Notes under the pieces: model-generated
Database searches by the model: none
The model's input: the letters and a program-made list of their open reading frames with translations, nothing else
Told to the model about the DNA's origin: nothing
Origin: Mobula hypostoma
Lineage: Eukaryota
DNA: 64,000 bases
Direction of reading: 5' to 3'
NCBI RefSeq assembly: GCF_963921235.1
Contig: NC_086097.1
Location: 53,880,001 to 53,944,000 of the forward strand
Part shown: positions 1 through 61,370 of the stretch, in pieces
Numbering within the stretch: position 1 is the first letter of the stretch
Layout: each line of letters starts with the position of its first letter
Position numbers and translations under genes: made by a program

Positions 1-589
1 GATCACTTAAGTGCTGTCCAATAGTGCATGTATTATCTGATAAAGAAATTTTCCCTCAAAATTGACAAATTCTGTACATGACCTTAACAAATATATAAAT
101 GGCACTGTATCCAAGTCCCTTAATATAAATGTCATCAAAGGCAAGATAATTTCAGTGAAAGACATGGGTAATGACACAACACAACATATTCAAATAATGC
201 TAAATTCTTAAATAAAGCTGTTCATTGAGATATGCAGGAAGAGAAGAGTACATGAAATATGGAACACAAGGACAATGAAAGAAGATGGATCTGAAGTGCA
301 AGCCACTTTTAAAGGGTATGTTGGATTTTAATCTTTCAGCTGCATTTCAGAATATGGTTAAAATGTTTAGAACAAAAGCTTATATTTTTTGCCTTTAACT
401 TCTTACAATCTAAACTTTGGGCATTGAGAAAAAAAATTCAGAGTTTTAAGTTCCTGTAACCCTTTATATTCAATGGCTTTGCTATCACCTGGTTTTTTCC
501 ACCAGTGCCCTGCAGATTAAATGGATCACCATTTTTTAATTGATTCACCATAGAGAGCCTTCTGTCCATAAAATGGCAACTGCTCTAAT

Positions 590-6497: not shown

Positions 6498-7346
6498 CAC
6501 GCGAACACGAGGAAATCTACAAATGCTGGAAATTCAAGCAACACACACAAAATGCTGGTGGAACGCAGCAGCCCAGGCAGCATCTATAGGAAGAGGTACA
6601 GTCGAAGTTTGTACCCTTTGTCAGGACTAACTGAAAGAAGAGATAGTAAGAGATTTGAAAGTGGGAGGGGGAGGGGGGAGATCCAAAATGATAGGAGAAG
6701 ACGGGAGGGGGAGGGATGGAGCCAAGAGCTGGAAAGTTGATTGGCAAAAGGGATACAAGGCTGGAGAGGGAGAGGATCATGGGATGGGAAGCCTAGGGAG
6801 AAAGAAAGGGGGAGGGGAGCTTGGAGGAAGATGGAGAGCAGGCAAGGATTTATGGTGAGAGGGACAGAGGGAGAAAAAAAAAGGGAGAAAAAAAAGGGAA
6901 AATAATAAATAAATAAATAAATAAATAAGGGATGGGGTAAGAAGGGAAGGAGGGGCATTAACGGAAGTTAGAGAAGTCAGTGTTCATGCCATCAGGTTGG
7001 AGGCTACCCAGACGGAATATAAGGTGTTGTTCCTCCAACCTGAGTGTGGCTTCATCTTTACAGTAGAGGAGGCCGTGGATAGACATATCAGAATGGGAAT
7101 GGGATGTGAAATTAAAATGTGTGGCCACTGGGAGAACCTGCTTTCTCTGGCGGACAGAGCGTAGGTGACTCCTCCTGTCTTTTCCTATCATTTTGGATCT
7201 CCCCCTCCCCCTCCCACTTTCAAATCTCTTACTGCCTCTTCTTTCAGTTAGTCCTGACGAAGGGTCTCGACCCAAACCGTCGACTGTACCTCTTCCAATA
7301 GATGCTGCCTGGCCTGCTGCGTTCCACCAGCATCTTGGGTGTGTTG
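6498..7346. mobile_element. Penelope-like element, inverted pseudo-LTR arrangement with GIY-YIG C-terminus
   Basis: Minus-strand PVATHFN...RLEEQHLIFRLGSLQPDGMN (ORF 6958-7275); 7169-7346 is the reverse complement of ~6540-6705; 13-bp TSD ctctataaattat at 6485-6497 and 7347-7359. Confidence 0.9.
7250..7285 (+). ncRNA. Minimal hammerhead ribozyme motif, core damaged
   Basis: agtc-CTGACGA-AGGGTCTCGACCC-AAACCGTC-gact; the GAAAC box is mutated. Confidence 0.55.
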
Positions 7347-8811
7347 CTCTATAAATTATACAACCTTGAGATTGTTTGTTTACAGGTAGTCACAAAACAA
7401 GAAACCCAAAAGAACCCAAATAAACAAAAGAATGAAAATAAAATATAAAATAAAAACCCAATGCACAGGAGAAAGGGGAAAATAGACACAAATCATGCAA
7501 ACAATTGAAGCAAACAGTGGGCTTCGATTCTTTTTTTGTGTAATAAATTATTTTATTTCAATATTACGATTTAATTTAATTTACATGAATATAGGGTAAT
7601 GAGATCGCAAGTGTGATTCAAATATAATGTATTTGGTATTATTTTATCTTTTTTTTAACTTATAATATACATCATCTTGTACTCTGCTTCTTTTTTCTTT
7701 TTCAATATTTTTATTAATTTCTACATAGAAGAATACAAACAACAACATTCTGAACCAAAATTGAGTCCTTAGATCTGCACCCCAGAGCAGCATGAGTAGG
7801 TCTGAAGCCAGGCCTAGCAGTTCATCATATTAGCGGACATGAGCACAGTAGCCAGGCAGTCTTCATAGCCTCAGTGCCATGGAGAGAGAAGTGACTATCG
7901 CAGAGTGAGCAAAATTAGTTCTCCCCTCAGATCCCAACACCCCGTCTTTTCAGTCTATCTTGGCTGGCATTTAAATTACCCAGACAATGGGACACCGAAA
8001 GGCTCCAGCACCCTGGAGAGAAGGGTGACCATCGCAAAGACCGAGCATAATGGGCTCTTGCCTCTGATCTGGGCTGGCATTTAAATCGTCTAGACTGTGA
8101 ATCGTACCTCACACTGGGACCAGGATACCGCTGTAGCAAAAGGCTCCGGCCTACACCACGCGGCCCAGTGACTCATTCTGGGCCCAGATTTTGCCCCTCA
8201 ACCCGAAGCCGCTCCAAAGCTCTTCAAATCAGCTTGGTGCCCAGAGCGATCCAAGCCAGTTATACGGGCATCGGAACTCCATCTGCAACACACCATCTCG
8301 GCTCATCCCATGAACTCGCCTCACCATCGCTCACCCCTTCACTGTTTGTGGCAATAATTTAACACAACTTACCTCAGAAAAGGTATTTTTAGTGATGTTT
8401 TTAGTCAGATTTCTCAACTTTTTAAACTACCAGTGAGCTGTTGTACGCATTCAGTAGTGCTAACTTAACCGGAATACTTGAAGACTTGAAATATAGATGC
8501 TTCGCAACTGTTAAGAATGTATGGTATTTTTCATAACAGGATATCTAGAACCAGTGCTTACATAGTTGGCCAAATAGATCGTTTTTCTTTAATGTTCTCT
8601 CATACCATCTCTTTTTCATCCTCCATTATTAATAAAGGATTAAACACTTCCATTCCTGTGAACCACTTGGGTAATAGTTGCTCACTTCAACTATCAGTCC
8701 AGTTTACCAACATTTTCTGGAAAATTCTGCAAGCATTGACACAAATGCAAGGTGGAACACCAAGGGTTGGATTAATTTAATCAAATCAACTAAATGATTT
8801 TCTTCAGTTCT

Positions 8812-9261: not shown

Positions 9262-11061
9262 CCTCATCTATGCGTGAAGTATACAGAATAAGGTAGATGG
9301 ACTTGCAGTACAGCTGCAGATTGGCAGGTATGATGGTGTAGACATCACTGATTCGTGGCTGAAAGAATATTATAGCTGGGAGCTTAATGTCCAAGAATAC
9401 ACATTGTATCTAAAGGACTGGCAGGAAGGCAGAGGGGACAGCTTTGCTCTGTTGGTAAAAAACGAAATCAAATTATTAGAAAGGGGTGACATATGGTTGG
9501 TAGGTGTCAATCATTGTGGGTGGAGCTAAGGAACTGCAATGGTAAAACGACCCCTGGATACAACCCCCAAACAGTAGTAATGATGAGGCCTACAGATTAC
9601 AATAGGAGATAGAAAATGCATGCCAAAAGGGCAATGTTACAATAGTCATGAGAGACTTCAATATGGAGATAGATTGGGAAAATCAGGTTGGTGCTGGATT
9701 CCAGGAGGTGGAGTTTCTAGAATGCCTGTGAGATGGCTTTTTTAGAGCAGTTCGTGGTTGAGCCCATGACAGAATCAACTATTCTGGATTGGGTGTTGTG
9801 CAATGAACCAGAATTGATTAGAGAGCTTAAGATAAAAGAATCCTTAGGGGAAAGTTATCATAATATGATTGAAATCACCCTGAAATTTGAGAAGGAGAAA
9901 CTAAAGTCAGATGTTTTAGTATTACAGTAGAGTAAAGAGAATTACAGAGGCATGAGAGAGGAATTGGCCAGAATTGATTGGAAAACAACACTGGCAGGGA
10001 TGATGGTAGAGCAGCAACGGCTGGAATTTCTCGAAGCAATTCGGAAAGAACAGGATATACACTCCCAAAGTGGAAGTATTCTAAAGGAATGATGACACAA
10101 CCGTAGCTAACAAGAAAAGTCAAAGTCAATATAAAAGTCAACATAAAAGCCATAGAGTGGGCCTAGAATCGAGCTAAAATTAGTGGGAAGTTCGAGGATT
10201 GAGAAGCTTTTAAAACATTAGAAAGCAACTAAAAAAAAAGTCATTAAGAAGGTAAAGATAGAATATGAAAGTAAGCTAGCCAATAATATTAAAGAGGATA
10301 CCATACGTTTCTTCAGATACATAAAGCGTAAAAGAGAGGTAAGAGTGGATATTGGGCTGCTGGAACATGATACTCAAGAGGTAGTAATGGAGGAAATGCA
10401 ATGGCAGACGAACTGAATAAGTATTTTCAATCAGTCTTCACCATGGAAGACACTAGCAGTATGGTGGAAGTTCCAGGTGTCAGGAGTCATGAAGTCTGTG
10501 AACTTACCATAACATGAGATAATGTTCTTGGGAAACTGAAAGGTCTGACGGTAGACAAGTCACCTGGACCAAATGGTGTACACCGCAGGGTTCTGAAAGA
10601 GATTGCCAAGGAGATTGTGGAGGCATTAGTAATGATCTTTCAAGAATCACTAGATTCTGGAATGATTCTGGAAGACTGGAAAATTGCAAAAGTCACTCCA
10701 CTCTTCAACAAGGGAGAAAGGCCAGTTAGTCTGACCTCAGTGGTTGGGAAGATGTTGGGGTCAATTATTAAGGTTACTTAACCTCAGGGTACTTGGAGGC
10801 ACATGATAAAATAGGTCATAGTCAGCATGCTTTCCTCAAGGAAAAATCTTGCCCGATAAATCTGTTGGAATTCTTTGACGAAATAACACGCAGGATAGAC
10901 AAAGGAGAATCGGTTGATGTCATGTACTTGGATTTTCAGAAAGCCTTTGACAAAGTGCCATACATGAGGCTGCTTAACAAGCTATGACCCGATAGTATTA
11001 CAGCAAAGATTCTAGCATGGATAAAGGAGTGGCTGAGAGGCAGGAAGCAAAGAGTGGGAAT
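9262..11061 (+). mobile_element. CR1 LINE with AP endonuclease and N-terminal RT, 3'-truncated
   Basis: SIQNKVD...ITDSWL, FLEQFVVEP, ILDWVLCNEPELI, DKSPGP, YLDFQKAFDKVP; stops abruptly at aagagtgggaat. Confidence 0.9.
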
Positions 11062-17421: not shown

Positions 17422-19084
17422 AATTGTGTAAGGTAAAGGAAACAAGTAGGGTAGTTATGGAAAGTATGACAATTAAAGAAGAGGAAGTACTGACACTTTT
17501 AAGGAATATAAAAATGGATAAGTCTCCAGGTCCGGACAAGATATTCCCTAGGACTTTGAGGGAAGTTAGTGTAGAAATAACAGGGTCTCTGACAGAAATA
17601 TTTCAAATGTCATTAGAAACGAGAATGGTGCCAGAGGATTGGCCTTTTGTTCGTGTGGTTCCATTGTTTAAAAAGGGATCTAAGAGTAAACCTGGCAATT
17701 ATTGGCCTGTGAGTTTGACGTCAGTGGTGGGTAAATTGATGGAAAGTATTCTCAGAGATGGTATATATAATTCTCTGGATAGACAGGGTCTGATTAGGAA
17801 CAGTCAATGTGGATTTGTGCGTAGAAGGTCATGTTTGACAAATCTTATTGAATTTTTTGATGAGGTTACTGAGAAAGTTGATGAGGGTAAAGTGGTGGAT
17901 GTTGTCTATATGGACTTCAGTAAGGCCTTTGACAAGGTTCCACACGGAAGGTTAGTTAGGAAGGTTCAATCGTTAGGTGTTAATATGGAAGTAGTAAAAT
18001 GGATTCAGCAGTGGCTAGATGGGAGACGCCAGAGAGTAGTGGTGGATAACTGTGTGTCAGATCGGAGGACGGTGTGTAGTGGTGTGCCTCAGGGATCTGA
18101 ACTGGGTCCAATATTGTTTGTAATACATATTAATGATCTAGATGATGGGGTGGTAAACTGGATTAATAAGTATGCAGATGATACTAAGATAGGTGGTGTT
18201 GTGGATGATGAGGTACGTTTTCAAAACTTGCAGAGAGATTTAGGACAGTTAGAAGAGTGGGCTGAAAGATGGCAGATGGAGTTTAATGCTGAAAAACGTG
18301 AGGTGCTACATTTCGGTAGAACTAATCAAAATAGGACATACATGGTAAATGGTAGGGCATTAAAGAATGCTTTAGAACAGAGGGATCTAGGAATAATGGT
18401 GCATAGTTCCCTGAAGATGGAATCTCATGTGGATAGGGTGGTGAAGAGAGCTTTTGGTTTGCTGGCCTTTATTAATCAGAGCATTGAGTATAGGAGTTGG
18501 GATCTAATGTTGAATTTGTATAAGGCATTGGTAAGGCCAAATCTGGAGTATTGCGTACAGTTCTGGTCACCGAATTATAGGAAGGATGTCAATAAAATTG
18601 AGAGAGTATAGAGGAGGTTTACTAAAATGTTGCCTGGGTTTCATCTCCTAAGTTACAGAGAAAGGTTGAACAAGTTAGGTCTATATTCTTTGGAGCGTAG
18701 AAGGTTGAGAGGAGACTTGATAGAGGTGTTTAAAATTATGAGGGGGATTGATAGAGTTGACGTGGTTTGACTTTTTCCATTGAGAGTGGGGAAGATTCAA
18801 ACAAGAGGGCATGGATTGCGAATTAGAGGACAAAAGTTTAGGGGTAACATGAGGGGGAACTTCTTTACTCAGAGAGTGGTGGCTGTGTGGAATGAGCTTC
18901 CAGCAGAAGTGGTTGAGGCAGGTTCGATGTCATTTAAAGCTAAATTGGATAGATATATGGACAGGAAAGGAATGGAGGGTTATGGGCTGAGTGCAGGTTG
19001 GTGGGAATAGGATAGGGTAAGAGTTCGGCAAGGACTAGAAGGGCTGAGATGGCCTGTTTCCGTGCTGTAATTGTTATATGGTTA
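17422..19084 (+). mobile_element. Young 5'-truncated CR1/HER1-like LINE
   Basis: Near-intact RT, 3' end ggcctgtttccgtgctgtaa plus (gttatatg) tail; 7-bp TSD tatgatt at 17415-17421 and 19085-19091. Confidence 0.95.
17424..18611 (+). pseudogene. CR1 ORF2 reverse transcriptase fragment (395 aa open)
   Basis: KSPGPD, YMDFSKAFDKVPH, GVPQGS, YADDTK; no endonuclease domain; premature stop at 18609-18611 although homology continues (GNFFTQRVV). Confidence 0.9.
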
Positions 19085-20624: not shown

Positions 20625-22305
20625 TCAGAATCATGTTTATTATCACTGACCTGTGCCAGGAAATTTGTGGCAGCAGTAGAGTGCAAGTAAAGAATATAAA
20701 TATTTATAAATATATAAATAAATAAATAGGAATAGCGAGATAGTGTCCATGGACCATACAGAAACCCGCCAGTAGAGGGGAAGAAGCCTTTCTTAAAACA
20801 CTGAGTATGGGCCTTCAGACTCCTGCATCTCCTCCATGATGGTAGTAATGAGAAGAGGGCATGTCACAGATGTACACAGCCTTCATGAGGAATTACCTCT
20901 TTAATATGTCCTCAGTGGTGGGGGTGGGGGTGCTTGCTCCTGTGATGAAGCCAGCCGAGTCTACAGCCCTCTGCAGACTTTTGTGATCCTGTGCATTGGA
21001 GTCTCGAATACAGGCACTAATACAACCAGTCAGCACGCTCTCTACTGTACATCTGTAGAAATTTACAAGAGGTTCCTCAAACTCCTATTGTAATCATTGG
21101 CATGCCTTCTTCATGATTGCATCAGTGTCTAAGGCTCAAGAGTGATCCACTGAGAGTTTGGTGTCCAGGGTCTTGAAGCTGCTCACCCTTTCTACCACTG
21201 ACCGCTCAATGACAGGTTGTGCATTTTCTCTTGACTTCCCCTTCTTGAAGTCCGCAACCAATTTCAGAAAGCCTTTCTGACATTCAGTGCAAGCTTCTAC
21301 TTCCTCAGGAGTTTGCGAAGATTTGACATGACATCTGAAACTCTGACAAAATTCTATAGATGTGTGGTGGAGAGTATATTAGCCGGTTACATCACAGCCT
21401 GGTATGGAAACACCAACACCTTTGAATGGAAAATCCCACAAATAGTGGTGGCTGCAGCCCAGTCTGTCACAGGTTAAGCCTTCCCCACCACTGGGCACAT
21501 CTACATGAAGTTTTGTCACAGGAGAGCAGCATCCATTATCAGGGATCCCCATCACAGCTCTTGTACCTCCTCCCTGATCCCTGCCACCCAGGTCATGTTC
21601 TCTTCTTGCTTCTGGTACTATTCAGGAAGAAGTTACCGGAGCCTCAGGACTCACACCACCGGGTTCATGAACAGTAATTTCCCTTCAACCATCAGGCTCT
21701 TGAACCAAACGGGATAACTTCACTTGCCTAGTCACTGAAATGTTCCCACAACCTATAGACTCACTTTCAAGGACTCATCATCTCATGCTCACAATATTTA
21801 TTGTTTATTTATTATTATTTCTTTCTTTCTGCATTTGCAATTTGTTGTATTTTTCACACTGGCTGAACACCCAAGTTTGTGCAGTCTTTCATTGATTCTA
21901 ATATAATTATTAATGTATTATAGATTTACTGAATGTGCCTGCAAGAATTTGAATCTCAGACTGTTTATGGTGACACATTTGTACTTTGGTAATAAATTTA
22001 CTTTGAAGTTTGAGGCTGCTGTGACACCAAAGCTAATCTCGCTCCTGTACACCCTGTTGCCATCTAAGGTTCTGCCGACCACAGTCGTGTCATCAGCAAA
22101 TATATAGGTTGTGTTTGAGCTGTGCATAGACACACAATTACGTGCGGAGGGAATAGAACAGTGGGCTAAGCATGCATCACTGAGCTGCACATGTATTGAC
22201 GGTCAGAGAGATGTTATTACCAATTCACACTGACTGTAGTTTCCCAATGAAGAGGTCAAGGATCCATTTATAGAGGGAGGTACAGAGGCCCAGGTTTTGA
22301 ACTTT
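20625..22305 (-). mobile_element. Rex1/Babar fragment interrupted by an opposite-strand Rex copy
   Basis: YIFADDTTVVGR (minus ORF 21918-22190); host reads ...cattcagtgcaag|gctgctgtgacacc... across the insert. Confidence 0.75.
21294..22013 (+). mobile_element. Rex1/Babar 3' fragment nested in the previous element
   Basis: FYFLRSLRRF, FYRCVVESIL, AASIIRDPHH, SGRSYRSLRTHTT; tail aataaatttactttgaa. Confidence 0.8.
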
Positions 22306-26339: not shown

Positions 26340-26980
26340 TCCTCCTCCTTCAAAGAACAGGGTTTCCCTTCCTCCACTATTGATGTTGCCCTTACTCACA
26401 TCTCTTACATTTCTCAGACATCTGCACTCACCCCATCTTATTAAAGATAGAGTCCCTCTTGTCCTCACCCACCACCCCAAGTGCCTCCATGTCCAATACA
26501 TCATTCTTCACAACTGCCACCATCTTCAACAGGATCCTATAACCAAACGCATCTTTACCTCCCCCACTCCCTGCAGGGATAGCTCCCTCCATGATTCCCT
26601 TGTCCATTTGTCCCTCCCCACTGATCTCCCTCCTGGCACTTATCCCTGCAAGTGGCCAAAGTGCTACACATGCCCATTCACCTCCTCCCTCATCTCCATT
26701 CAGGGCCCCAAACAATCCCTCTAGGCGAGGCAACACTTACACCTGTGAATCCTATTTGGGTTGGCTACTGTATCTGGTGCTCCAGATGCAGCCTCTTCAC
26801 CTATCCCTTCCACATTGTCCCCCTTCTCCTCCCGTCACATTCTTATTCTGACATCTTCCCCCTTCCTTTCCAGATCTGATGAAGGTCTCAACCTGAAATG
26901 TCAGCTGTTTATTTATTTCCATAAATGCTGCATGACCTGCTAAGTTTCTCCAACATTTTGTGTATGTAGCTCTGGAATTA
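26340..26980 (+). mobile_element. Penelope-like fragment (linker/Cys region plus pLTR)
   Basis: DRVPLVLTHHP, PPGTYPCKWPKCYTCP, YCIWCSRC; pLTR end with hammerhead motif. Confidence 0.8.
26871..26907 (+). ncRNA. Minimal type-I hammerhead ribozyme motif, core intact
   Basis: cagat-CTGATGA-AGGT(ctca)ACCT-GAAA-TG-TC-agctg; stem II 4 bp, stem I 4 of 5 pairs. Confidence 0.65.
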
Positions 26981-27344
26981 TTGAATAAAAATCTGAAGAC
27001 TTGAAAGCAATTTATTTATTTACCTATATTTTATCTTTTTTTTAAATTCCCTAATTGCTTAAATAATTAAAATCATGAATATCAATCCTATTTGAAGTTT
27101 TCTTAATTATTCCCTATCAAAGGCAAATAAGGATAGTTCAAAGGTCTTTGAAACATCAAGTTGTCAAAAAGCCACCAGGTCATTTGGGATGGTGCCTCAG
27201 GCTAGACTGTCAGAGGACAAGTCTCTCACCAGCACTCTGCAGGAGGGTCTCCCAGATACAGAGTGTCAGCAGAGGGTTCTCCACATGAGGATCAACCTTT
27301 TATGGGCAGATGAGACCGGTTAAAAAAAATAATCAGAAATAGGA

Positions 27345-28065
27345 AACAACAGGAATTCTGCAGATGCTGGAAATTCAAGCAACATACATCAAAGTTGCTG
27401 GTGAACGCAGCAGGCCAGGCAGCATCTCTAGGAAGAGGCGCAGTCGACGTTTCAGGCCGAGACCCTTCGTCAGGACTAACTGAAGGAAGAGTGAGTAAGG
27501 GATTTGAAAGCTGGAGGGGGAGGGGGAGATGCAAAATGATAGGAGAAGACAGGAGGGGGAGGGATAGAGCCAAGAGCTGGACAGGTGATAGGCAAAAGGG
27601 ATATGAGAGGATCATGGGACAGGAGGCCTAGGGAGAAAGACGGGGGGGGGGTGACCCAGAGGATGGGCAAGAGGTATATTCAGAGGGACAGAGGGAGAAA
27701 AAGGAGAGTGAGAGAAAGAATGTGTGCATAAAAATGAGTAACAGATGGGGTACGAGGGGGAGGTGGGGCATTAGTGGAAGTTAGAGAAGTCGATGTTCAT
27801 GCCATCAGGTTGGAGGCTACCCAGAGGGAATATAAGGTGTTGTTCCTCCAACCTGAGTGTGGCTTCATCTTTACAGTAGAGGAGGCCGTGGATAGACATG
27901 TCAGAATGGGAATGGGATGTGGAATTAAAATGTGTGGCCACTGGGAGATCCTGCTTTCTCTGGCGGACAGAGCGTAGATGTTCAGCAAAGCGGTCTCCCA
28001 GTCTGCGTTGGGTCTCACCAATATATAAAAGGCCACATCGGGAGCACCGGATGCAGTATAAAAAT
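27345..28065 (-). mobile_element. Young Penelope-like 3' fragment with pLTR
   Basis: GIY-YIG region (YIGET...) and pLTR highly similar to 6503-7165 and 60757-61370; flanked by agaaatagga at 27335-27344 and 28066-28075. Confidence 0.9.
27442..27477 (-). ncRNA. Minimal type-I hammerhead ribozyme motif, core intact
   Basis: Minus strand agtc-CTGACGA-AGGGTCTCGGCCT-GAAACGTC-gact; palindromic ACGT in place of stem III. Confidence 0.75.
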
Positions 28066-28550
28066 AGAAATAGGAGCAGGATTGACCACCCAGCCCTTCA
28101 AGTCAGCTGCACCATTTAACAAAACCATGGCCAGTTTTCTATTTCAGGATTGTGTTCCAGCACTATATCCTTAAACCTTGATTCCCTGAAGATCCAGAAA
28201 TCTGGTAATCCGAATTTTAACGAATGCAGTGTCTGAGCTTCTACAACTCCTCACATCCCCAAACCCCTGAAGCAGAAAGCTCCAAAGGATCATCAACCTC
28301 AGAATGAAAAAAAATTCTCACCGTCTCAGTCTTAAACAATTTAGGTCCTGGTCTAAAAGTATGCCACAGTTCCAGGCTCATCATCCTTGGATGGCATCCT
28401 CCCTACATCTAACAAGTGAAACTTTTTAAGAATTTTGTAAGTTTTACACAATCTCCCCCAATTCTTTGAAAATAGAATAAATAATCCCAATCTATTTAAC
28501 CTTGCTGCATCTGACAAACCCACCATCCTCGTAACCAGTGCAGTAATTCT
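28066..28550 (-). mobile_element. Old CR1 3' fragment
   Basis: RLNRLGLF...KTYKILK in minus ORF; CR1 tail agaaataggagcagg. Confidence 0.65.
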
Positions 28551-35792: not shown

Positions 35793-36449
35793 GTGCAGGG
35801 AGATGAGGTTGAGTACAGGGCTACTGTAGGAAACTTTGTCACATGGTGTGAGCAGAATTATCTGCAGCTTAATGTGAAAAAGACTAAGGAGCTGGTGGTA
35901 GACCTGAGGAGAGCTAAGGTACCGGTGACCCCTGTTTTCATCCAGGGGGTCAGTGTGGACATGGTGGAGGATTACAAATACCTGGGGATACGAATTGACA
36001 ATAAACTGGACTGATCAAAGAACACTGAGGCTGTCTACAAGAAGGGTCAGAGCCGTCTCTATTTCCTGAGGAGACTGAGGTCCTTTAACATCTGCCGGAC
36101 GATGCTGAGGATGTTCTACGAGTCTGTGGTGGCCAGTGCTATCATGTTTGCTGTTGTGTGCTGGGGCAGCAGGCTGAGGGCGGCAGACACCAACAGAATC
36201 AACAAACTTATTCGAAAGGCCAGTGATGTTGTGGGGATAGAACTGGACTCTCTCACGGTGGTGTCTGAAAAGAGGATGTTGTCTAAGTTGCATGTCATCT
36301 TGGTCAATGTCTCCCATCCACTACATAATGTACTGGGTGGGCACAGGAGTACATTCAGCCAGAGACACATTCCTCCGAGATGCAGCACAGAGCGTCATAG
36401 GAAGTCATTCCTGCCTGTGGCCATCAAACTTTACAACTCCTCCCTATAG
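35793..36449 (+). mobile_element. Young Rex1 RT C-terminal fragment (different subfamily)
   Basis: WCEQNYLQLNVKKTKELVVDLRR...YKYLG...KLD*SKNT...RHRKSFLPVAIKLYN; one TGA at 36012-36014 in an otherwise open frame. Confidence 0.9.
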
Positions 36450-37354: not shown

Positions 37355-38039
37355 ATCATCCAGCAAGCTAGTGATGAATATTAGACTAATAATGGATAAA
37401 TGTAAAACAATAAGCAGCTCCAGTAGGAGTCTAATCACCTCTCCTTCATTCTGAGCAAAAGTACCATCAGCAAGTCTCCTGTCACTTTAGGAACAATGAC
37501 TAACCAGAATCTCAGCCTGACCAGCTAACGAAAAGGCATGGTTAGAAGAACAGAATTTTATAAAATAGTATTCCTCTCATTATAAAACAACATACCTACC
37601 ACAGTGTGCAAGGTGGTTGTTGGAATAAGCAATTTATTCAAGTTCTAATTGTTGAGTTATATGAAGTTGTCATCATGATCCACTTAACCACACTTGTCTT
37701 TCATTGTTTTTGCTATTAACAGCTTCCTTAGTATTTCTAATCCTTTGCCAATGGAATTCTCACCTGAAATATTATGTGGATTCTACATTCCTATCTGTCT
37801 ATTAGATAGACTTTAATTTCCTGAAACATAAAGAAATGTAAGTATTTCCATGAACAACAACTGGGTTTTGGGCAAATGTAATCCATTCACTTCTCTGAAT
37901 ATCTATCAACTGGAAAATGTGAAGAAATCTCCCGTCTAAATTTTTGTTGTAAACAACTTGAAAATATTTTTGTATTAATACGGCAGTTCTGGACAGAGAA
38001 TTCCTTAATCATGCTAAAAAGTGAAGTTAGTTAGTTCTA

Positions 38040-38174
38040 ACCAGTCCTAATGAAGAGTCTCTGCCCAAAACATCGACTATTTAATCTTTTCCATCGATGC
38101 TGCCTGGCCTGCTGCGTTCATCCAGCATTTTGTGCATGTTGCTTTGGATTTCCAGCATCAGCAGATTTTCTCTT
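38040..38174 (+). mobile_element. pLTR-only Penelope mini-insertion (135 bp)
   Basis: Begins at a decayed hammerhead motif (agtc-ctaatga...aaaacatc-gact); 10-bp TSD gttagttcta at 38030-38039 and 38175-38184. Confidence 0.8.
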
Positions 38175-38324
38175 GTTAGTTCTATGCACTCTCTTTTTAG
38201 TTGATTTCACTTACAAAAACTGATAATAGATACTGCACTGATTAGCTGCCATTATCTAAGAATCACTATGATGTGACTTTGGATGTAGCTCAACTCAGAA
38301 ATAGCGATATTAGTAAAGATCATG

Positions 38325-38890
38325 CTGGTGGTCAGCCATTTTAGTTCCTCTTCCCATTCCTACTGGCGTACTTTACTTCCAAGTTGATGCTGCACGGAGA
38401 ATGGAGCTAACACTTATATTCCACCTTGGTAGTCTCTGACCTAATGGCATGAACATCGAGTTCCTTAACCCGTAATAACTACTCCCCTCTGTTCCCTCTA
38501 TCCTGCTAGCCCCTATCATCCCATCATTTTGCCCTCTCTCCTCTTGATCTGTCTGTCAATCCACATCTTCCTCCTGCTGGTTCCCCTCCTCAGCTCCCCT
38601 TTATTCCATGGTTCATTGTCCTCTCCTCGTAGATGCCATTTGATATTTCCACATATACCTCTCAGCTTCCCACTTCATCTCATTCTCACCTACCTATTAC
38701 CGTGTCTCACATAAATCCACCTATTATACACCAGTTCCTACTCCACCCCATCCTCCCACCTTTGGGGAATAGCTATCTCCCTGCTTTTTATTCAGTCCTG
38801 ATGAAGGGTTCCAACCCAGACTATCAATTGTCTACTTCCCCTCATAGATGCTGCCTGGCCGATTGAGTTCCTCCAGCTCCTCTGTGTGAT
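38325..38890 (+). mobile_element. Old Penelope-like 3' fragment
   Basis: LIFHLGSL*PNGMNIEF at ~38413-38463; pyrimidine-rich UTR; decayed hammerhead motif at 38793-38830. Confidence 0.7.
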
Positions 38891-39452
38891 TTTCAGCAAA
38901 AGATCTCCAAAGTTATAGACCTAATCATCTTTGCTCAGAACGCAGGGAGTAGCGATAAATTCTGCTGATGCTGGAAATCCTTAGCAACACACACAAAATG
39001 CTGGAGGAACTCAGGAGGTCAGGCAGCATCTATAGAAATGAATAAACATTTGACGTATTGAGTCAAGATCCTTCTTAACTATTATATTTGCTGAACTTAT
39101 GCAAGGGTGAGTTAAACCAGGCACAAGGCTTTTAAATATCATTGTTTACAAAATGTTTTGTAAACCAGTGTTTCTCTTTGTCCTAATCTATTTCTTTCCA
39201 TGGTTTCATACTGGACATCTGTGCATACCTTCTGAAATTATCACTCTTGTTATTATTGGTAATTATTGTCATATGTATGTAAATACATTGAGAAGCTTTC
39301 GTTTGCACACCATCCAGATCATTCCATACATAAGTACATCAAGGCAGTAGAATGTAGAATATAGTTTGTTATGGTATACGACTGCTCCTGACGTGGCTTC
39401 CTCTACATCGGTGAGACACAATGTACATTAGGGGACCATTTCACTGATCACT

Positions 39453-39614
39453 TGTCAGGACACTGGAGCAGGGATCCAATCGCAGACCCAGTACTGCGTA
39501 CACAGTGATATTAGTTGAGTAACAAATCCCAAGGTGCAAACAAAGTCGGCGTTGAAGTTCAGGCAGAAATCAAAACATCCAGAGAAATCCAAAAACCAGA
39601 ATCTGGAAACAGGC

Positions 39615-39657
<43 letters not shown>

Positions 39658-39980
39658 TGCTGGAAAGGTGCAGGAAAACTCACTGGTACAATTTGGCAAC
39701 AAACAGTTGAAAACACAGGACTAAAATACACTGAGCAATAAACAGAGAGGCAGATGATAGGCGGAGCACAATGAAACAAAAGTGGAGGCAAAACAGGTAA
39801 TAATGAGAAACAGGTGAGAGGCAGAGTATTCAGTAATACAGGGGCCGGAGTAGAGCAGAAGCAGGGACAGGAGCACATGGGGCATGAAAACAAGCAAGAG
39901 CACATGGCAATACAAAACCACAGACCAATGGCCAGGGGGAAAACACACAAAAAAACAGAGTTCAACTGGACGTACTGACA
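39453..39980. mobile_element. Solo LTR (528 bp)
   Basis: Terminal inverted tgtcag...ctgaca; decayed 5-bp flanks tcact/gtact; host PLE sequence resumes after it. Confidence 0.75.
39616..39657. repeat. (CAGA)n microsatellite
   Basis: About 10 perfect units. Confidence 0.95.
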
Positions 39981-41739
39981 GTACTTAACTCCCATCTGCC
40001 ACAAAAGGAGTGATTGCCTGGTGGCCACCCATTTTAATTCTGCTTCTCATTCCCATTCCAACTCCAACATGTTAGTCCATGGCCTCCTTTACTGCCACGA
40101 TGAGAACACACTCAAGTTGAAGGAGAAACATCTCGTATTCCATCTGAGTAGAATCCAACCTGATGGCATTAAATGTTGATTTCTTTAATTAAGCATGTCA
40201 TGTGCTGCAGGAACTCAACAGCTCAAGCAGCATCTGCAGGAGGAAAGAATTTGTCAACATTCCATTCGGGTCAAAATCCTGCATCAGGGATGAGAGTGGA
40301 AAGATCAGATGACCAGCATTGAGAGGACAAGGGAGTGGCAAGAAAGAATTCCAAGGCAATTGGTGGACTGGCGAAGGGGGTAAGGTGACATGCAGGTAGG
40401 GGAGGTGAATGGGGATAAAGTTGTAAGACTGTTCCATTGTCCATCCACCGACTACACACACACAAGTTTGTTATCATTGACTTATTTGTCATGAAGTTTG
40501 TTGTTTTGCAGCAGAAGTATGGCACAGAGATATAAAAAAACCATAAATTATAAAATAACCAAATAGTGCAATAAAAAGGAATAGTGAGGTAGCATTCATG
40601 GACCTTTCAGAAATCTGTTGGCGGAGGGGAAGAAGCTATTCCTAAAACATTGAGTATGCGTCATCAAGCTTTTGACAAAAGTTCTGAAGTATCAAAGGAA
40701 CCCTCTGCCCATTTTCCAAGAAGCGACAACATAGGTTGTGCCAATGCTCCTCTGCCACTCCCATGATCTGACACCATCAAGTGTAACAACCTCTCCAAAG
40801 CAAACTACAGCTTGACCTCAGATTCTGAATGGCAGCTATCTGAGGCTCTATCAAATTCAGAAGAATTGGTAGGATAAAGTTCTATAGTAAGAAGCCACTT
40901 ACAGTGTCCGTGCATTTGGATTTGTACTTTACTGCTTTTGGGCAAGCAGCAGGGAGTGCTGAATGCAAGGTGTTTGGAGTGTAACATCAAAGAGGACAAA
41001 ATATCCGGTTTTGTAATGGTTAAGAGGACTGTTAGTGGTGTAATGGGGAGTAAGGAAGAAATGAACATGTGTTTGGAATAAGAATGGAAGGAGCATTTGT
41101 ATTGAAGAGTATTTGTGAAGGCCACGGTACAGAGGGAGTGTTTTGGGAGAAGATTACCATGTGTTGGACCCAGTTTGTTAAGCTGAGAATCTCTATATCA
41201 TCTCCTCAGATCAGATGTTCCTCAGTTTTATCAAATTGACCATTGACAGTAAAATAATCCCCCCATTTATCGTGACTTCATTCAACAGAATCTCCAAGAA
41301 TGCATTAGAGAATCTTTGAACTTATTTCATAATGACTTAAAGAAAGAGGAGCAAGAGTAAGCCAAGACTAAGCCATTCTTATGAATAAGCCATGGCAGAA
41401 GCTATTCTGCCCTCTGCCCTCTGCCGTGCCCTGAAATCAATGGCTGATCAGCTATATGCATCATTTCATTGTCAGAGCCACTTCTCTCCAAAGCCCTCAA
41501 TCCCCACATTTTCTAAAAAATTACCTTCTTCCTCTTTAAATACTTGCGATGTTATAGCTTCCATAACGTTCCAGTGGAGAGAATTCCAGAGGTTCATCAG
41601 CTTCTTGAGAAGTTCCAACGTATCTCAGGTTTAGATGACTGCCTCTGATCTTGTTCAAAACTAGTAAAAACAACTTGGCATCTATATTGTCAAGTCTCCT
41701 TAGAATCTTCCATGTTTCCAAAAGATCACCCTTCATTCT

Positions 41740-44000: not shown

Positions 44001-44539
44001 TAATCTAAGTAATTAGAGGAGTTATTTCAGCATCTGTGGGCAGAAAAATATCAGATCTTTAATTAAGGCTGAAATTATCATGTATCTGTAAACAGGGAAT
44101 AGAGAAGAAACCAAAAAAGATTCCATAAGGGGTGATGATGCAAACAGTATAGATTTTATTTAGGTGGGGCAGGTAACAGGAAAAAGCAAATAACTGCAAT
44201 GGATTTAGGGTACATTAACTTTGGAAATACCTTAGGCAAGGCACCACACAGGAATTTATGGAATTAAGGAAATGCAATAAAATATATATTTTTAAAATAT
44301 TTTGAAAATAGAATAAAGTAAGACAGCTTCATACAGATCTTGGCTCATGAAAATCAATATTGTAGGTCTCAAGGATCGTTTAAAGATTGTTATTGTTACC
44401 AGCGAGGATATTCTTGGAACCACCTTGTCCCATCAGCTGCGCATTTGGTCATCACCTTTCAAGACCGCACATGGAAGGACTGCAAAAGTCCATAGGTTGT
44501 GAGTTAGCTCTGTTCATTGCGTAATTCCTAGCATGGAGT

Positions 44540-48424: not shown

Positions 48425-48560
48425 GGCCCTGAATAAGGGTCTTGACCCAAAACCTCGACTGCTTGTTCATTTCCATAGATGCTGCCTGACCTGCTGAGTT
48501 CCTCCAGCATTTTGTGCGTGCTGCTTTGGATTTCGAGCATCTGCAGATTTTCTCGTGTTT
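48425..48560 (+). mobile_element. pLTR-only Penelope remnant
   Basis: Decayed hammerhead motif followed by atagatgctgcctgacctgctgagttcctccagcattttgtg and tail; no TSD seen. Confidence 0.75.
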
Positions 48561-55332: not shown

Positions 55333-55825
55333 GCACCACTCTCATTCACGGTCCCATATCCCTTGATTCATGAATGTCCATAAATATTTGGGCCTCTGTC
55401 TTGAATATATTGAAACTAAGCCCTTTTAGGTAGATAACTCCAAAGTTTCACTACACTCTGGGAGAAGAATTACATATTATCCCTTTCCTGTATAGCTGAT
55501 GGCTTCTTTTTAGGTCTCTGATTCTGAACACCCAGTTGGGGAAGGGTCATCATTTCTTGCAACTTCTTACTAAACCAAGCTGAAATTAACAAAATGAGGA
55601 TTTTCCAGCTACATAGACACATCAGTTAAAGGTGACTAAAGATAAAATTCCTCTCAACTTGGAACCATTCCAACAAGTACTTTCTGCACTTGAACACCCT
55701 CACACCCTTCCAAGGTGTGGTTACCTGCAATAGTTAGAATACTCCAGTCCATCTAAGGAACTAAACCCTGTCTCTCAAGCCTGGCATAGCCAAAGAGACT
55801 GAAAGCAGTGACTTATTTCTTTAAG

Positions 55826-55962
55826 CAACACACATAAAAAATGCTGATGAACGCAGCAGGCCAGGCAGCATCTATAGGAAGAGGTACAGTCAACATTTTG
55901 GGCCAAGACCATTCGTCAGGACTCAACTTGAATTTCCAGCATCTGCAGAATTCCTCGTGTTT
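55826..55962. mobile_element. 137-bp inverted pLTR-only Penelope insertion
   Basis: Minus pLTR with hammerhead remnant (55826-55923) plus plus-strand 36-nt tail (55927-55962); 15-bp TSD acttatttctttaag at 55811-55825 and 55963-55977. Confidence 0.85.
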
Positions 55963-56537
55963 ACTTATTTCTTTAAGTCACAATTTCAAGGTTTGTCATT
56001 ATTTCTTAATTCTGTAAAGTATGCCTCTGTTTATGAAATACAAGATCTGGTTAACCAGCATCTCGCTTGCCCTGCCACCATTAAGACTATATGCACAAGC
56101 AACCAGACTTCATTGCTCCTGAACTACACTGAAATTTTACCTTTTACAATGCATTGTTTCTTCTCACTCTTCGCAGTAAAGAATATCAGTCAAGAGTGAA
56201 CTCAACATTACGCCTCTCTTGCCTGAAGAAACTCAAGCCATCTTTAGTCCAGTCTGACTGAAAAAAACTCTGAGGCAGCACAAAGCATGAAAAGAACCCA
56301 GAACCTTTTCTGAAACCAAAGCAGAAAATGTTGGGAAAATTCTGCAAATCATGCATTGATAGCATGGTGTCATGCAGGAAAAAGAAGGAGTCAACATTTT
56401 GGGTCTGTGGTAGGTAAGTGGCAGAATGAACAAAAATGTTGACTCTCACTCTGTCCACAAATGCTGCCCGACTTAAGGAAACACAGAAGACTGGAAGAAT
56501 TCAAAGAGTTAAGCAGGAGCAGTCGAGACAAAAGGAG

Positions 56538-56577
56538 TATGTCAATGTTTCAGGTCAAAACCCTTCATCAAGACATA
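56538..56577 (-). ncRNA. Hammerhead motif variant in an old PLE pLTR
   Basis: tatgtc-TTGATGA-AGGGTTTTGACCT-GAAACATT-gacata; 6-bp stem I; first core C changed to T. Confidence 0.55.
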
Positions 56578-56604
56578 GAGGGAGGAGGAAAGATTGCTAA
56601 TATA

Positions 56605-56671
56605 CAGTACAATACAAAAGTCGTAGGCACCTATATATAGCTAGGGTTCCTAAGACTTTTGCAAAATACTG
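56605..56671. mobile_element. 67-bp Tc1/mariner-type MITE
   Basis: cagtacaatacaaaagtcgtaggcacc / ggttcctaagacttttgcaaaatactg imperfect TIRs; TA on both sides. Confidence 0.75.
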
Positions 56672-56966
56672 TATTTGTCAACATGGAGCTGAGTGCAAAT
56701 TTGTAAATCTGGCGGGAGCGAAGGATGTTGGAAATAGCAAGGGTGGAGCTCTGTGGGAGGTGTGTGGTTCAGGTGGCAGAGAAGGAGTGCCAGGGCGAGG
56801 GGTGGTATGGGTGCAGACACACCTAGTCCTGAGACACCAGGCAAGGTCATTTGATTCCAAACAATTGGTTTATTGAACACAAGATACTCTGCAGATGCTG
56901 GGGTCAAAGCAACACTCACAACACGCTGGAGGAACTCAGCAGGTCAGGCAGCATCCGTGGAAACGA

Positions 56967-57006
56967 TCCGTTAACGTTTCGGGCCAGAACCCTTCATCAG
57001 CCCTGA
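56967..57006 (-). ncRNA. Hammerhead motif, core intact, stem I disrupted
   Basis: tcaggg-CTGATGA-AGGGTTCTGGCCC-GAAACGTT-aacgga. Confidence 0.6.
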
Positions 57007-57440
57007 AGAGGGAAGGATCATGGTAGCCACCCACTTCAACTCTGATTCCCATTCCCACTCAGATATGTCCATACGTGGCCTCCTCTACTGCCATGATGAG
57101 GCTAAACTCGGGTTGGAGGAGCAACACCTCATATATCGTCTAAGTAGTCTCCAGCCCCTTGGTATGAACATAGAATTCTCCAACTTCTGGTAATTCACTC
57201 CCCCTCCCTTCCCCTATCCCTATTTCACGTTGCCCCCTCCCCCAGCTGCCTATCACCTCCCTCTTGGTTCCACCTCCTTCTACTACCCATTGTGTTTCCC
57301 CCTATTCCTTCTTCACCTTTCCTGCCTATAACCTCCCTGCCTCCCCTCCCCCACCCCTTTATTTTTCCCCTGGAACCTACTAGCCTTCTCCTTCCCACCC
57401 TCCCCCCACCTTTCTTATAGGGCCTCTGCCCCTTCCCTCT

Positions 57441-57480
57441 TCAGTCCTGACGAAGGGTTCCGGCCCCAAACGTCGACTGA
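57441..57480 (+). ncRNA. Hammerhead motif, 6-bp stem I, one core substitution
   Basis: tcagtc-CTGACGA-AGGGTTCCGGCCC-CAAACGTC-gactga. Confidence 0.6.
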
Positions 57481-57709
57481 TCGTTTCCATGGATGCTGCC
57501 CGACCTGCTGAGTTCCTCCACCGTGCTGTGAGGATTGGTTTATTGATCATTACAGACTGTCTCTCTGGTGCCCTCCCCTTAGCTCCCCTCTCCCTTCCCC
57601 TTTCCCAAACCATGATTCCCCTCTCCCTGCCCCCCTCCCACTCTCAGTCCACAATAGAGACTCTTATCAGAATCAGGTTTATCATCACTCACAGATGTCA
57701 TGAAAGGAA

Positions 57710-59814: not shown

Positions 59815-60585
59815 AGGAGGTAGCCACCCACCTCAGTTAGGTCACCCATTCCCACTCTAACATATTGGTTATGTGGAGAAGACCCTCCTCTCCTACTATG
59901 ATGAGGCCACACTCAGATTGGAGCAGTAACGCCTCATATTCCTTCTGGTAGCCTCCAACCTTATGGCATGAAAATTGATTTCTCTAACTGCCGGAAATTT
60001 TACTTTACTTTATTGTCGCCAAACAATTGATACTAGAGCATACAATCATCACAGCGATATTTGAAATTTCTCCACCCTCTTCCTTCTCTCTTTTTCCATT
60101 CACCATCCTGGCTCACCTTTCCCTTTTTCTTCTCCTCACCTCTCTCTGGTGTCTCCCACCCCCTCCCCCCCTTCCCTGGTCCATGTCCTCAGTTCCCCGA
60201 AACGTCCACTGTAATCTTTTCCCAGTTGCTGCCTGGCCTGCTGAGCTCCTCCACCGTTGTGTGTGTGTTTCTCAGATATCCAGCATCTGCATTTTCTCTC
60301 TTGTCCATGTCCTCTCCTATCAGATTCCTCCTTCCTCAGCCCTTCCACCTTCCGGCTCCCAGCTTCGTACCTTATCACCCCTTCCCCACCCACCTTCCCC
60401 CTCACCTGGCTGCACCTATCACTCGCCAGCTGTATTCCTTCCCCTCCCACCAGCTTCTCATTCTGGTTTCTTCCCCCTTCCTTTCAGACCCGATGAAGAG
60501 TCCCAGCCAAAACATTGGCTGTTTAATCCCCCTCCATAGATCCTGACTGATAGCTGAGTTCCTCAAGCATTTGTGTGTGTTGCAT
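59815..60585 (+). mobile_element. Penelope-like 3' fragment with two pLTR remnants
   Basis: EATLRLEQ*RLIF..GSLQPYGMKIDFSN; pLTR pieces at ~60180-60310 and ~60480-60585. Confidence 0.7.
60001..60062 (-). mobile_element. ~60-bp Rex 3' tip inserted in the PLE
   Basis: Reverse complement of ~55175-55245; gaaattt at 59994-60000 and 60063-60069. Confidence 0.75.
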
Positions 60586-60756
60586 CATACAGTTGTATTT
60601 CAGAAATGAATATGGCCTTGCAGTAGTATTATAATACATCAGTTTCTTAGTCTTGTTTGCAGTTTTGTTAACTGCTGAACTTTGAAATTTAGGTTATTTT
60701 TTTCTCATATAAATATCCTGCATTCACGCTGAATGTGCCTAATACTGTGGTTTAAT

Positions 60757-61370
60757 CAACACACATCAAAGTTGCTGGTGAACGCAGCAGGCCAGGCAGC
60801 ATCTCTAGGAAGAGGTACAGTCGACGTTTCAGGCCAAGACCCTTTGTCAGGACTAACTGAAGGAAGAGTTAGTAAGAGATTTGAAAGTGGGAGGGGGAGG
60901 CGGAGATCCAAAATGATAGGAGAAGACAGGAGGGGGAGGGATAGAGCCAAGAGCTGGACAGGTGATTGGCAAAAGGGATACGAGAGGATCATGGGACAGG
61001 AGGCCCAGGGAGAAGGAAAAGGGGGAGGGGGTGAAAAACCCAGAGGATGGGCAAGGGGTATAGTCAGAGGGACAGAGGGAGAAAGAGGAGAGTGAGAGAA
61101 AGAATGTGTGTATATAAATAACGGATGGGGTACGAGGGGGAGGTGGGGCATTAGCGGAAGTTAGAGAAGTCAAGGTTCATGCCATCAGGTTGGAGGCTAC
61201 CCAGACAGAATATAAGGTGTTGTTCCTCCAACCTGAGTGTGGCTTCATCTTTACAGTAGAGGAGGCCGTGGATAGATATGTCAGAATGGGAATGATATGT
61301 GGAATTAAAATGTGTGACCACTGGGAGATCCTGCTTTCTCTGGCGGACAGAGTGTAGGTGTTCAGCAAAT
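60757..61370 (-). mobile_element. Young Penelope-like 3' fragment with pLTR
   Basis: Same family as 27345-28065; 12-bp TSD ctgtggtttaat at 60745-60756 and 61371-61382. Confidence 0.9.
60819..60854 (-). ncRNA. Hammerhead motif, one core substitution
   Basis: agtc-CTGACAA-AGGGTCTTGGCCT-GAAACGTC-gact (CpG decay at G8). Confidence 0.6.

Follow-up and report, generated by a model that had tools for sequence, protein, structure and literature searches.

A 36-nt motif in Mobula hypostoma, on the minus strand of a 64,000-nt stretch of DNA (the window), raises the question of what a small self-cleaving RNA does for the transposable element that carries it, and of whether its solitary copies act on host transcripts. 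The kind of motif is already known, as minimal hammerhead ribozymes (min-HHRs) of Penelope-like elements (PLEs) have been published (Cervera & de la Pena 2014, PMC4209133), and the role of hammerheads in endonuclease-containing PLEs is called unclear in PMC8557442. In a young family with some 50,000 near-identical copies, the ends of the copied templates can be read from DNA alone. The new point is a pile-up of genomic 5' ends at the first base of the ribozyme.

Read 5' to 3' on the minus strand, positions 27477-27442 consist of the blocks AGTC, CTGACGA, A, GGGT, CTCG, GCCT, GAA, ACGT and C^GACT, the caret marking the predicted cut. Numbering starts at this cut, with +1 assigned to the G on its 3' side (27445) and -32 to the A of AGTC (27477). 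The parts are as follows.

27442..27477, minus strand: minimal type-I hammerhead motif, 36 nt, whose sequence fits the min-HHR description in PMC4209133.
27474..27477, minus strand: 5' arm of stem I, AGUC; the A at 27477 (-32) is the main 5'-start hot spot of copies (sequence and junction counts).
27466..27473, minus strand: core C3-A9 (CUGACGA) and the bulged A after A9 (sequence).
27454..27465, minus strand: stem II, GGGU/GCCU, with loop CUCG; the wobble G10.1.U11.1 is that of the youngest subfamily (sequence, fold prediction).
27446..27453, minus strand: G12-A14, the palindromic A15.1-C-G-U16.1 and C17, with the predicted cut at 27446/27445 (sequence).
27442..27445, minus strand: 3' arm of stem I, GACU (+1..+4); a secondary 5'-junction peak lies at +1 (sequence and junction counts).
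27476..27500, minus strand: pyrimidine tract ending CAG-TTAG, initiator-like and 3' splice-site-like, both candidate readings (sequence; Inr consensus BBCA+1BW from PMC5287114).

The catalytic boxes CUGANGA and GAAA..UH are present in type-I order. A first-pass annotation of this DNA, made from the letters, had described the minus-strand motif, with cleavage predicted between 27446 and 27445 and stem III reduced to a palindrome; the sequence is as it stated, with C17 at 27446 and G1.1 at 27445, and the minimal type-I architecture is likewise visible, as helix III is absent, positions 15.2-16.2 are palindromic (ACGU), and an extra base lies between 9 and 10.1. Stem II comprises 4 bp, including two G.U pairs, and is preceded by the bulged A; position 11.1 is U, where C is the usual base, giving a G.U pair at 10.1/11.1. 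No hammerhead model appeared among the 4 matches that an Rfam scan returned at E<=5.

The element that carries the motif is bounded by a duplicated target site, and its layout is the following.

27345..28060, minus strand: full extent of the 5'-truncated PLE copy, about 716 bp, with 96% identity to a longer copy (genome comparison).
27771..28060, minus strand: C-terminal GIY-YIG fragment of the PLE ORF, with the stop codon at 27771-27773 (PF01541, E 2.7e-05, above the cut-off).
27345..27441, minus strand: 3' end of the element past the ribozyme, with the optional tail; 3' ends of the family cluster at +65..74 and +95..104 (genomic copies).
27335..27344, plus strand: left copy of the 10-bp target-site duplication (TSD), AGAAATAGGA (sequence).
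28066..28075, plus strand: right copy of the 10-bp TSD (sequence).

The window copy is a truncated insertion that has retained an intact motif, located in its 3' pseudo-LTR (pLTR) on the sense strand of the element. The best 30 genomic matches share a common 3' end about 100 nt past the cut, vary in 5' length, and often have an inverted second copy. A set of 30 copies was chosen by the N-terminal part of the ORF; eight have an upstream motif on the same strand, and these 8 and one more were fetched as long copies. Two intact same-strand motifs lie 3,507-3,523 nt apart in 8 of the 9, and an open frame of 1,041-1,043 codons that starts in the tail and has all six tested motifs is found in 4 of the 9. 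The unit of the element is about 3.51 kb and codes for reverse transcriptase (RT), a CX4CX2C linker and GIY-YIG. The RT and GIY-YIG frame lies upstream of the motif on the same strand, which bears out the origin in a PLE pLTR proposed at first pass. Pfam searches of the element ORF gave PF00078 at E 2e-4 and 4e-5, both below the cut-off, and PF01541 at E 7e-4 (below) and 2.7e-5 (above); a CX2-5CxxC linker, CCHH-type EN residues and a DKG motif were found by regular expression from the feature list in PMC8557442. Partial-tandem pLTRs, inverted 5' copies and an optional tail of 30-40 nt are all present in copies of the element. By these sequence features the carrier is a Neptune/Nematis-type PLE, an assignment made by feature list and not by tree.

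The very high copy number supposed at first pass is confirmed by searches of 3.48 Gb of genome. Exact matches number 49,069 for a 34-base pattern that includes 4 Y positions and 94,050 for a 28-base core pattern, each against 0 for the reversed-pattern control and so well above anything chance would give; a variant with a loop 1 nt longer is rare (184 matches). The identity of 27477-27442 on the minus strand, as the minimal hammerhead belonging to a highly abundant Penelope-like element, can be regarded as close to certain. Within the window, nhmmer with the segment 27340-27520 gave 19 matches at E<=1, among them one inverted tail piece and one match at E 0.22. All 12 further positions named in the first-pass annotation have a homologous motif, and its description of them as mostly decayed agrees with the finding that only 1 of 15 aligned window copies, namely 27477-27442, passes the rule of intact core and stems. 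The other copies are listed here.

6506..7371, both strands: two older copies in inverted orientation, each with a decayed ribozyme motif (about 6600, minus; 7250, plus) (nhmmer, alignment).
26860..26972, plus strand: older decayed homologue on the strand opposite to the motif at 27442..27477 (alignment).
38039..40301, both strands: four older decayed homologues (38043 and 38793, plus; about 39070 and about 40280, minus) (alignment).
48425..48555, plus strand: older decayed homologue (alignment).
55819..57520, both strands: four decayed homologues (55925 and 56570, minus; a subfamily-B inverted pair at 57000, minus, and 57447, plus) (alignment).
60196..60876, both strands: three homologues (60196 and 60487, plus; 60860, minus, which lacks G8) (nhmmer, alignment).

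An inverted mini-insertion at 55819-55972 has a sense arm that begins at about -32/-36. Elsewhere in the window are LINE reverse-transcriptase frames at 17424-18611 and 44503-45802 (PF00078, E 7e-29 and 1.5e-20), PF09004 (ALKBH8_N) frames at 21235-21474 and 36015-36449 that are probably the ends of another LINE family, and a pair of 1-kb repeats at 1776-2799 and 10034-11056 with 72% identity. No non-transposon Pfam match was found in 99 of the 146 window frames of >=78 aa, a search that short exons would escape.

How far the ribozyme has been retained during the evolution of the family can be judged from 497 kb of window and locus DNA in which selected centres were masked (loci L040-L069, picked by ORF, being left unmasked). 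The motif is covered by 81 of 113 matches, which fall into three subfamilies, A (33), B (13) and C (35), with intact motifs in 19 of 33, 7 of 13 and 1 of 35, respectively. The majority sequences of the three are identical at 30 of 36 ribozyme columns, compared with 2 of 16 columns just upstream and 4 of 12 just downstream, so that the catalytic positions are unchanged despite diverged immediate flanks; the differences within the ribozyme lie at N7, loop II, 11.1 and CpG sites. About equal conservation is seen in the tail block +17..+40, with identity at 19 of 24 columns, so that conservation is not peculiar to the catalytic core. Across the three majorities no compensatory stem change was found, only G-C/G.U changes in nearly invariant stems, and the sole double change in a 13-copy RNAalifold alignment is consistent with CpG decay. 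The comparison of core with flank proposed at first pass as a test of the ribozyme therefore comes out in its favor beside the motif and against it in the tail block and in the lack of compensatory change. Position 11.1 offers a further detail: the majorities of subfamilies B and C have G-C at 10.1/11.1, the window copy has G.U, and among the first 100 listed matches to the 34-base pattern, which represent the youngest group, 85 carry T at 11.1. As the other CpG sites of the motif are altered in just 3-4 of 100 first listed matches (counted by eye), the wobble was evidently already in the source element. Within the block +17..+40, GATGCTG can pair with CAGCATC of the tail, possibly as a protein-binding or priming structure; the pairing is absent from the RNAalifold consensus of 13 copies.

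The ends of the copied templates were mapped by counting junction words, each made up of 3 bases that all differ from the element and then 28 bases identical to it, throughout the genome at 13 positions (-31 and -34 lie outside this set). Upstream of stem I the raw counts are 73 at -330, 200 at -43, 453 at -36 and 830 at -33; from stem I to the cut they are 2,159 at -32, 757 at -30, 186 at -22, 33 at -7 and 56 at -2; and past the cut they are 332 at +1, 99 at +3, 169 at +5 and 61 at +8. A true junction passes this filter with a chance of 27/64 (18/64 at -22 and -7, 12/64 at +8) if even base use is assumed, and the denominator, 50,601 copies of the +1..+28 word, is a proxy for -32. The corrected shares are 10.1% at -32, 1.6% at +1, 0.26% at -2 and 0.34% at -330. 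The first base of stem I is thus the highest of the 13 positions and accounts for about 10% of copies, and much of the count at -33 is expected spill-over from it. No prior report of the pile-up was found in the PLE-focused literature as far as available to us, although one could exist in subscription papers, in Repbase, or in supplementary material to PMC4209133 and PMC11167929 (Fig. S2); Penelope and hammerhead literature on sharks and skates yielded nothing relevant.

Junctions were inspected as the first listed and not at random (40 of 2,159 at -32, 15 of 757 at -30, 40 of 56 at -2, 70 of 332 at +1, 40 of 169 at +5, where three second rows of palindromic or adjacent pairs were left out, and 15 of 55 in subfamily B), and some were moved by eye out of the solo class: L282 and L290 at -32 (16 to 14 of 40), L096 at +1 (7 to 6 of 70), L118, L233 and L249 at -2 (10 to 7 of 40), and L131, L132 and L255 at +5 (6 to 3 of 40). 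The resulting estimates of solo inserts (with 95% CI) are 756 (413-1,268) at -32, 28 (10-62) at +1, 10 (4-20) at -2 and 13 (3-37) at +5.

The -32 peak is real. The first 40 junctions listed there comprise 23 inversions, 14 solo inserts, 2 copies of other subfamilies and 1 jump. Partner ends of the inversions range from +62 to -615, and most of them either overlap by 0-2 nt or have a few bases added; the solo inserts are about 100-135 bp long, and 5 of the 14 have an exact duplication of 10-15 bp that ends 0, 0, 1, 2 and 7 nt from AGTC. Subfamily B shows 55 raw junctions at -32, about 196 when corrected, of 4,684 (about 4%), a count made in B at this position alone; 14 of the 15 inspected are B copies and all are junction-like. 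Unselected DNA (294 kb) contains 20 subfamily-A arms, of which 6 begin at -39..-29 and none at +1, subfamily-B arms having been excluded because the reference homology stopped at -93.

Several smaller observations touch on the same position. CGA or TGA, often as ACGA and repeating part of the core box, precedes about 17 of 100 listed -32 junctions (L270, L276, L278, L299, L305, L327 and L328 are cases), which may represent RT re-priming at the template end. Contigs of other organisms at L062:415-458 have opposite-strand joints at positions matching -32/-31, so that relatives may share the hot spot. At G000:C2:12242899-12243219, three ribozyme motifs stand in direct tandem with a period of 145 nt, each from -30, possibly as a small retrozyme-like array.

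The favored explanation of the pile-up is that the RNA of the element probably begins at the A of -32, most simply through a promoter start within the pLTR, and a start there would make the ribozyme the first 36 nt of the element RNA. Reverse transcription would prime at two internal sites, at about +66 and about +100, and from the 5' tail copy it would reach the end of the RNA after 100-135 nt. The products would be short inserts flanked by TSDs, and inversion arms, that begin at AGTC, which would also account for a class of SINE-like inserts of 100-135 bp. The 3' ends of copies are compatible with this scheme. Among 220 arms of the fetched loci, which are a selected set, the 3' end falls at +65..74 in 87 and at +95..104 in 97. 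Inverted pairs (from the G000 loci L070-L099, L190-L229 and L270-L309) almost always join a long-tail arm to a short-tail arm (51 of 54 and 23 of 23 cases), and both orders occur. Such pairing agrees with joint use of two priming sites, as in PMC11167929, and also with the one-sided tail drawn in PMC8557442; it looks as if two halves of one complex used the two RT start sites. A simple snap-back of one cDNA was rejected as the origin of the inversions, since in 27 of 54 and 10 of 23 pairs the longer tail is found on the shorter arm.

The evidence from promoter motifs is mixed. Subfamilies B and C match the initiator consensus BBCABW exactly at -32, and A does so at -36, a smaller peak; the -32 peak of subfamily A sits on TA and not CA, which counts against a start site. 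A copied cap might give an extra G before AGTC, and no such excess is seen (23 of 100 first listed -32 junctions, by eye). Nor was a downstream promoter element matched by eye at the spacing used in fly.

The main rival is that the -32 peak records an RT roadblock or a break at a retained 3' splice site, where the pyrimidine tract and YAG would bind splicing factors. A pyrimidine tract with AG precedes the core in all three subfamily majorities, the -36 and -32 peaks both lie on the A of YAG, and an intron of Drosophila virilis Penelope ends at helix I (PMC4209133). However, the inserts retain AG (2,159 junctions at -32 vs 757 at -30) and so are not products of splice-site cleavage, a common upstream exon is absent from the 40 and 15 junctions sampled, and a motif scan found no GTRAG donor within 400 nt upstream, the only candidates being two weak sites at the end of the ORF. 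Plain splicing is excluded by the retention of AG and by the lack of a shared first exon in the 55 junctions, and the roadblock or break at a retained site is itself judged unlikely.

Further complicating the interpretation is the second peak at the scissile bond. The count at +1 is six-fold above that at -2, and the 70 inspected junctions comprise 55 inversions, 6 local changes, 2 jumps and 7 solo inserts (6 after review), with a duplication in 2 of the 6 solos. Microhomology of 3-5 nt, mostly to the stem-I mirror or to GAC, is present in 20 of the 70. Perfect palindromic joins at the cut number 68 sites, and the neighboring GGTACC palindrome contributes about a quarter of the first 100 listed +5 junctions (by eye), so that joins at the cut are not clearly above those at the neighboring palindrome; a control at a tail palindrome (1 site) was unfair, being too close to the 3' end. 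The cut site was rejected as the main 5'-end hot spot, as it comes second after -32 and shows no clear excess of solo inserts. The peak at +1 is therefore ambiguous and weak evidence, as microhomology confounds it and the interval of its solo estimate overlaps those of -2 and +5, and whether cleavage lies behind it is put at somewhat below even. Two observations belong beside it. A recurrent class of +1 junctions (of the first 100 listed, 17 end in CCT; L075, L093, L197, L198, L223 and L224) looks as if copying had jumped from one GAC word of the ribozyme to the other and then run off near -31. At L076/L077 (G000:C1:61736934-61736995), a 31-nt unit that begins exactly at +1 is tandemly repeated.

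Both peaks might instead be by-products of joining and repair (microhomology, hairpin skipping, trimming of the cDNA back to a hairpin), with the ribozyme catalytically vestigial in the youngest subfamily. This reading draws on the GAC/GACT microhomology in 20 of 70 +1 junctions, about 11 of which resemble a skip between two GAC words, on the 68 palindromic joins at the cut, a number of the same order as at the neighboring GGTACC palindrome, and on the fixation of G10.1.U11.1 in the youngest subfamily (85 of 100 listed) together with absent covariation. It accounts poorly for the -32 junctions, 14 of 40 of which are solo, several with a duplication abutting AGTC, and most of whose inversion partners have little or zero microhomology; the mirror image of stem I in the cDNA has little stability (-1.9 kcal/mol and not the minimum free energy, MFE) and so insufficient for the -32 peak, and the catalytic positions are constant in three subfamilies with diverged flanks. 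Repair as the source of both peaks is accordingly considered very unlikely.

Predictions of the fold bear on whether the RNA could cut itself at all. In a 38-nt segment the four Watson-Crick pairs of helix I have probabilities of 0.91-0.98 and helix II 0.87-0.97, values that are lower in a longer context. The MFE structure of the monomer keeps stems I and II and pairs G5-G8 with C15.2-C17, which buries the cut site and core in the predicted monomer; the open hammerhead form has a predicted probability of 0.0006, and RNAalifold of 13 copies has the same collapsed pairing in its consensus. An active double hammerhead is predicted at -9.5 kcal/mol vs -20.0 for two collapsed monomers, in energy models that omit the tertiary core. 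According to PMC4209133, a min-HHR monomer was not cleaved and dimers cleave at a low level, so that the first-pass statement that these motifs cleave as dimers goes further than that paper does. In PMC11167929, the anole motif cleaves only with the protein of its element, mutants leave insertion unaffected, RNA-seq ends at the cut were not found, and uncut RNA is the main template.

Returning to an RNA that begins at -32, the collapsed fold (G5-G8 with C15.2-C17) would keep the ribozyme off, and the ribozyme would cut a minority of molecules, probably aided by the protein of the element or by a second copy. Most copied templates would be uncut, and the smaller +1 peak may record cut ones. The full two-step map of RNA 5' ends, with a main end at -32 as the start site and a minor end at the scissile bond about one-seventh as frequent, is held only tentatively and is on the doubtful side. 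If true, it would make the hammerhead a switch at the start of the mRNA that removes a capped 32-nt leader from a germ-line minority, would amount to in vivo evidence of cutting by a PLE min-HHR, and would offer a handle on function (decapping, monomer release or circularization, cap-independent translation). It predicts capped ends at -32 and 5'-OH ends at +1.

The first-pass proposal that intact solo copies are active ribozymes that cut host intronic transcripts, here extended to host pre-mRNA at scale, can point to some 94,000 copies that keep both core boxes and to the intact window copy, but it is highly improbable, as the monomer is unable to form stem III, the predicted fold hides the cut site, published monomers were uncleaved (PMC4209133) or, in the anole, protein-dependent (PMC11167929), and the window has neither an intact same-strand partner for the motif nor a detected host exon; on these models solo genomic copies would be passengers, unlikely to cut host RNA.

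Comparison with known systems places these features in context. Like the min-HHRs of metazoan PLEs (PMC4209133), the motif is of type I, has no real helix III, is palindromic at 15.2-16.2, and has a bulge after A9 and a short helix I, and like them it is located in the pLTR, mostly as single copies on truncated elements. The copy number of about 49,000 or 94,000 compares with about 4,000 in coelacanth and about 9,000 in Xenopus, obtained there by other search methods. Helix II is 4 bp here and 7-8 in S. mansoni, the motif sequence is uniform here whereas it is highly variable in that paper, and the youngest subfamily has G10.1.U11.1 in place of the G-C pair of the published min-HHRs, a pair called highly conserved there and lying outside its descriptor.

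The carrier resembles the Neptune/Nematis EN+ PLEs (Craig et al. 2021, PMC8557442) in its C-terminal GIY-YIG with CCHH-type residues, its CX2-5CxxC and DKG motifs, its partial tandems, its inverted 5' copies and its tail at one end only. Likewise, as in D. virilis Penelope, where a promoter lies within the pLTR (Schostak et al. 2008, PMC2377424), the pLTR belongs to a partial tandem (the promoter being shown in the fly) and helix I opens with an acceptor-like AG. Transcription of the fly element starts 46 nt ahead of an intron of 75 nt (PMC2377424), the end of which maps to helix I (PMC4209133), so that the start there is not at the ribozyme, which counts against a start at -32 here; no such intron was found in the present family, in which the inferred start coincides with helix I.

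Poseidon PAc of Anolis carolinensis (Frangieh et al. 2024, PMC11167929) shares with this family a hammerhead just before two internal RT start sites, an optional tail of 30-40 nt and an ORF that begins near the ribozyme. The CX4CX2C linker present here is absent from Poseidon (PMC8557442), and the stem-I pile-up of genomic 5' ends is not reported for PAc in the available text of PMC11167929. Non-LTR retrozymes (PMC7229834; bioRxiv 10.64898/2026.07.22.740005) have a type-I hammerhead related to those of PLE pLTRs, as found here. Identity with a retrozyme was rejected for the window copy, which is single and ORF-derived, the fetched tandem units being coding elements of 3.5 kb. Retrozymes are described as non-coding tandem arrays, whereas the present family is autonomous, with short copies scattered as solos or inverted pairs.
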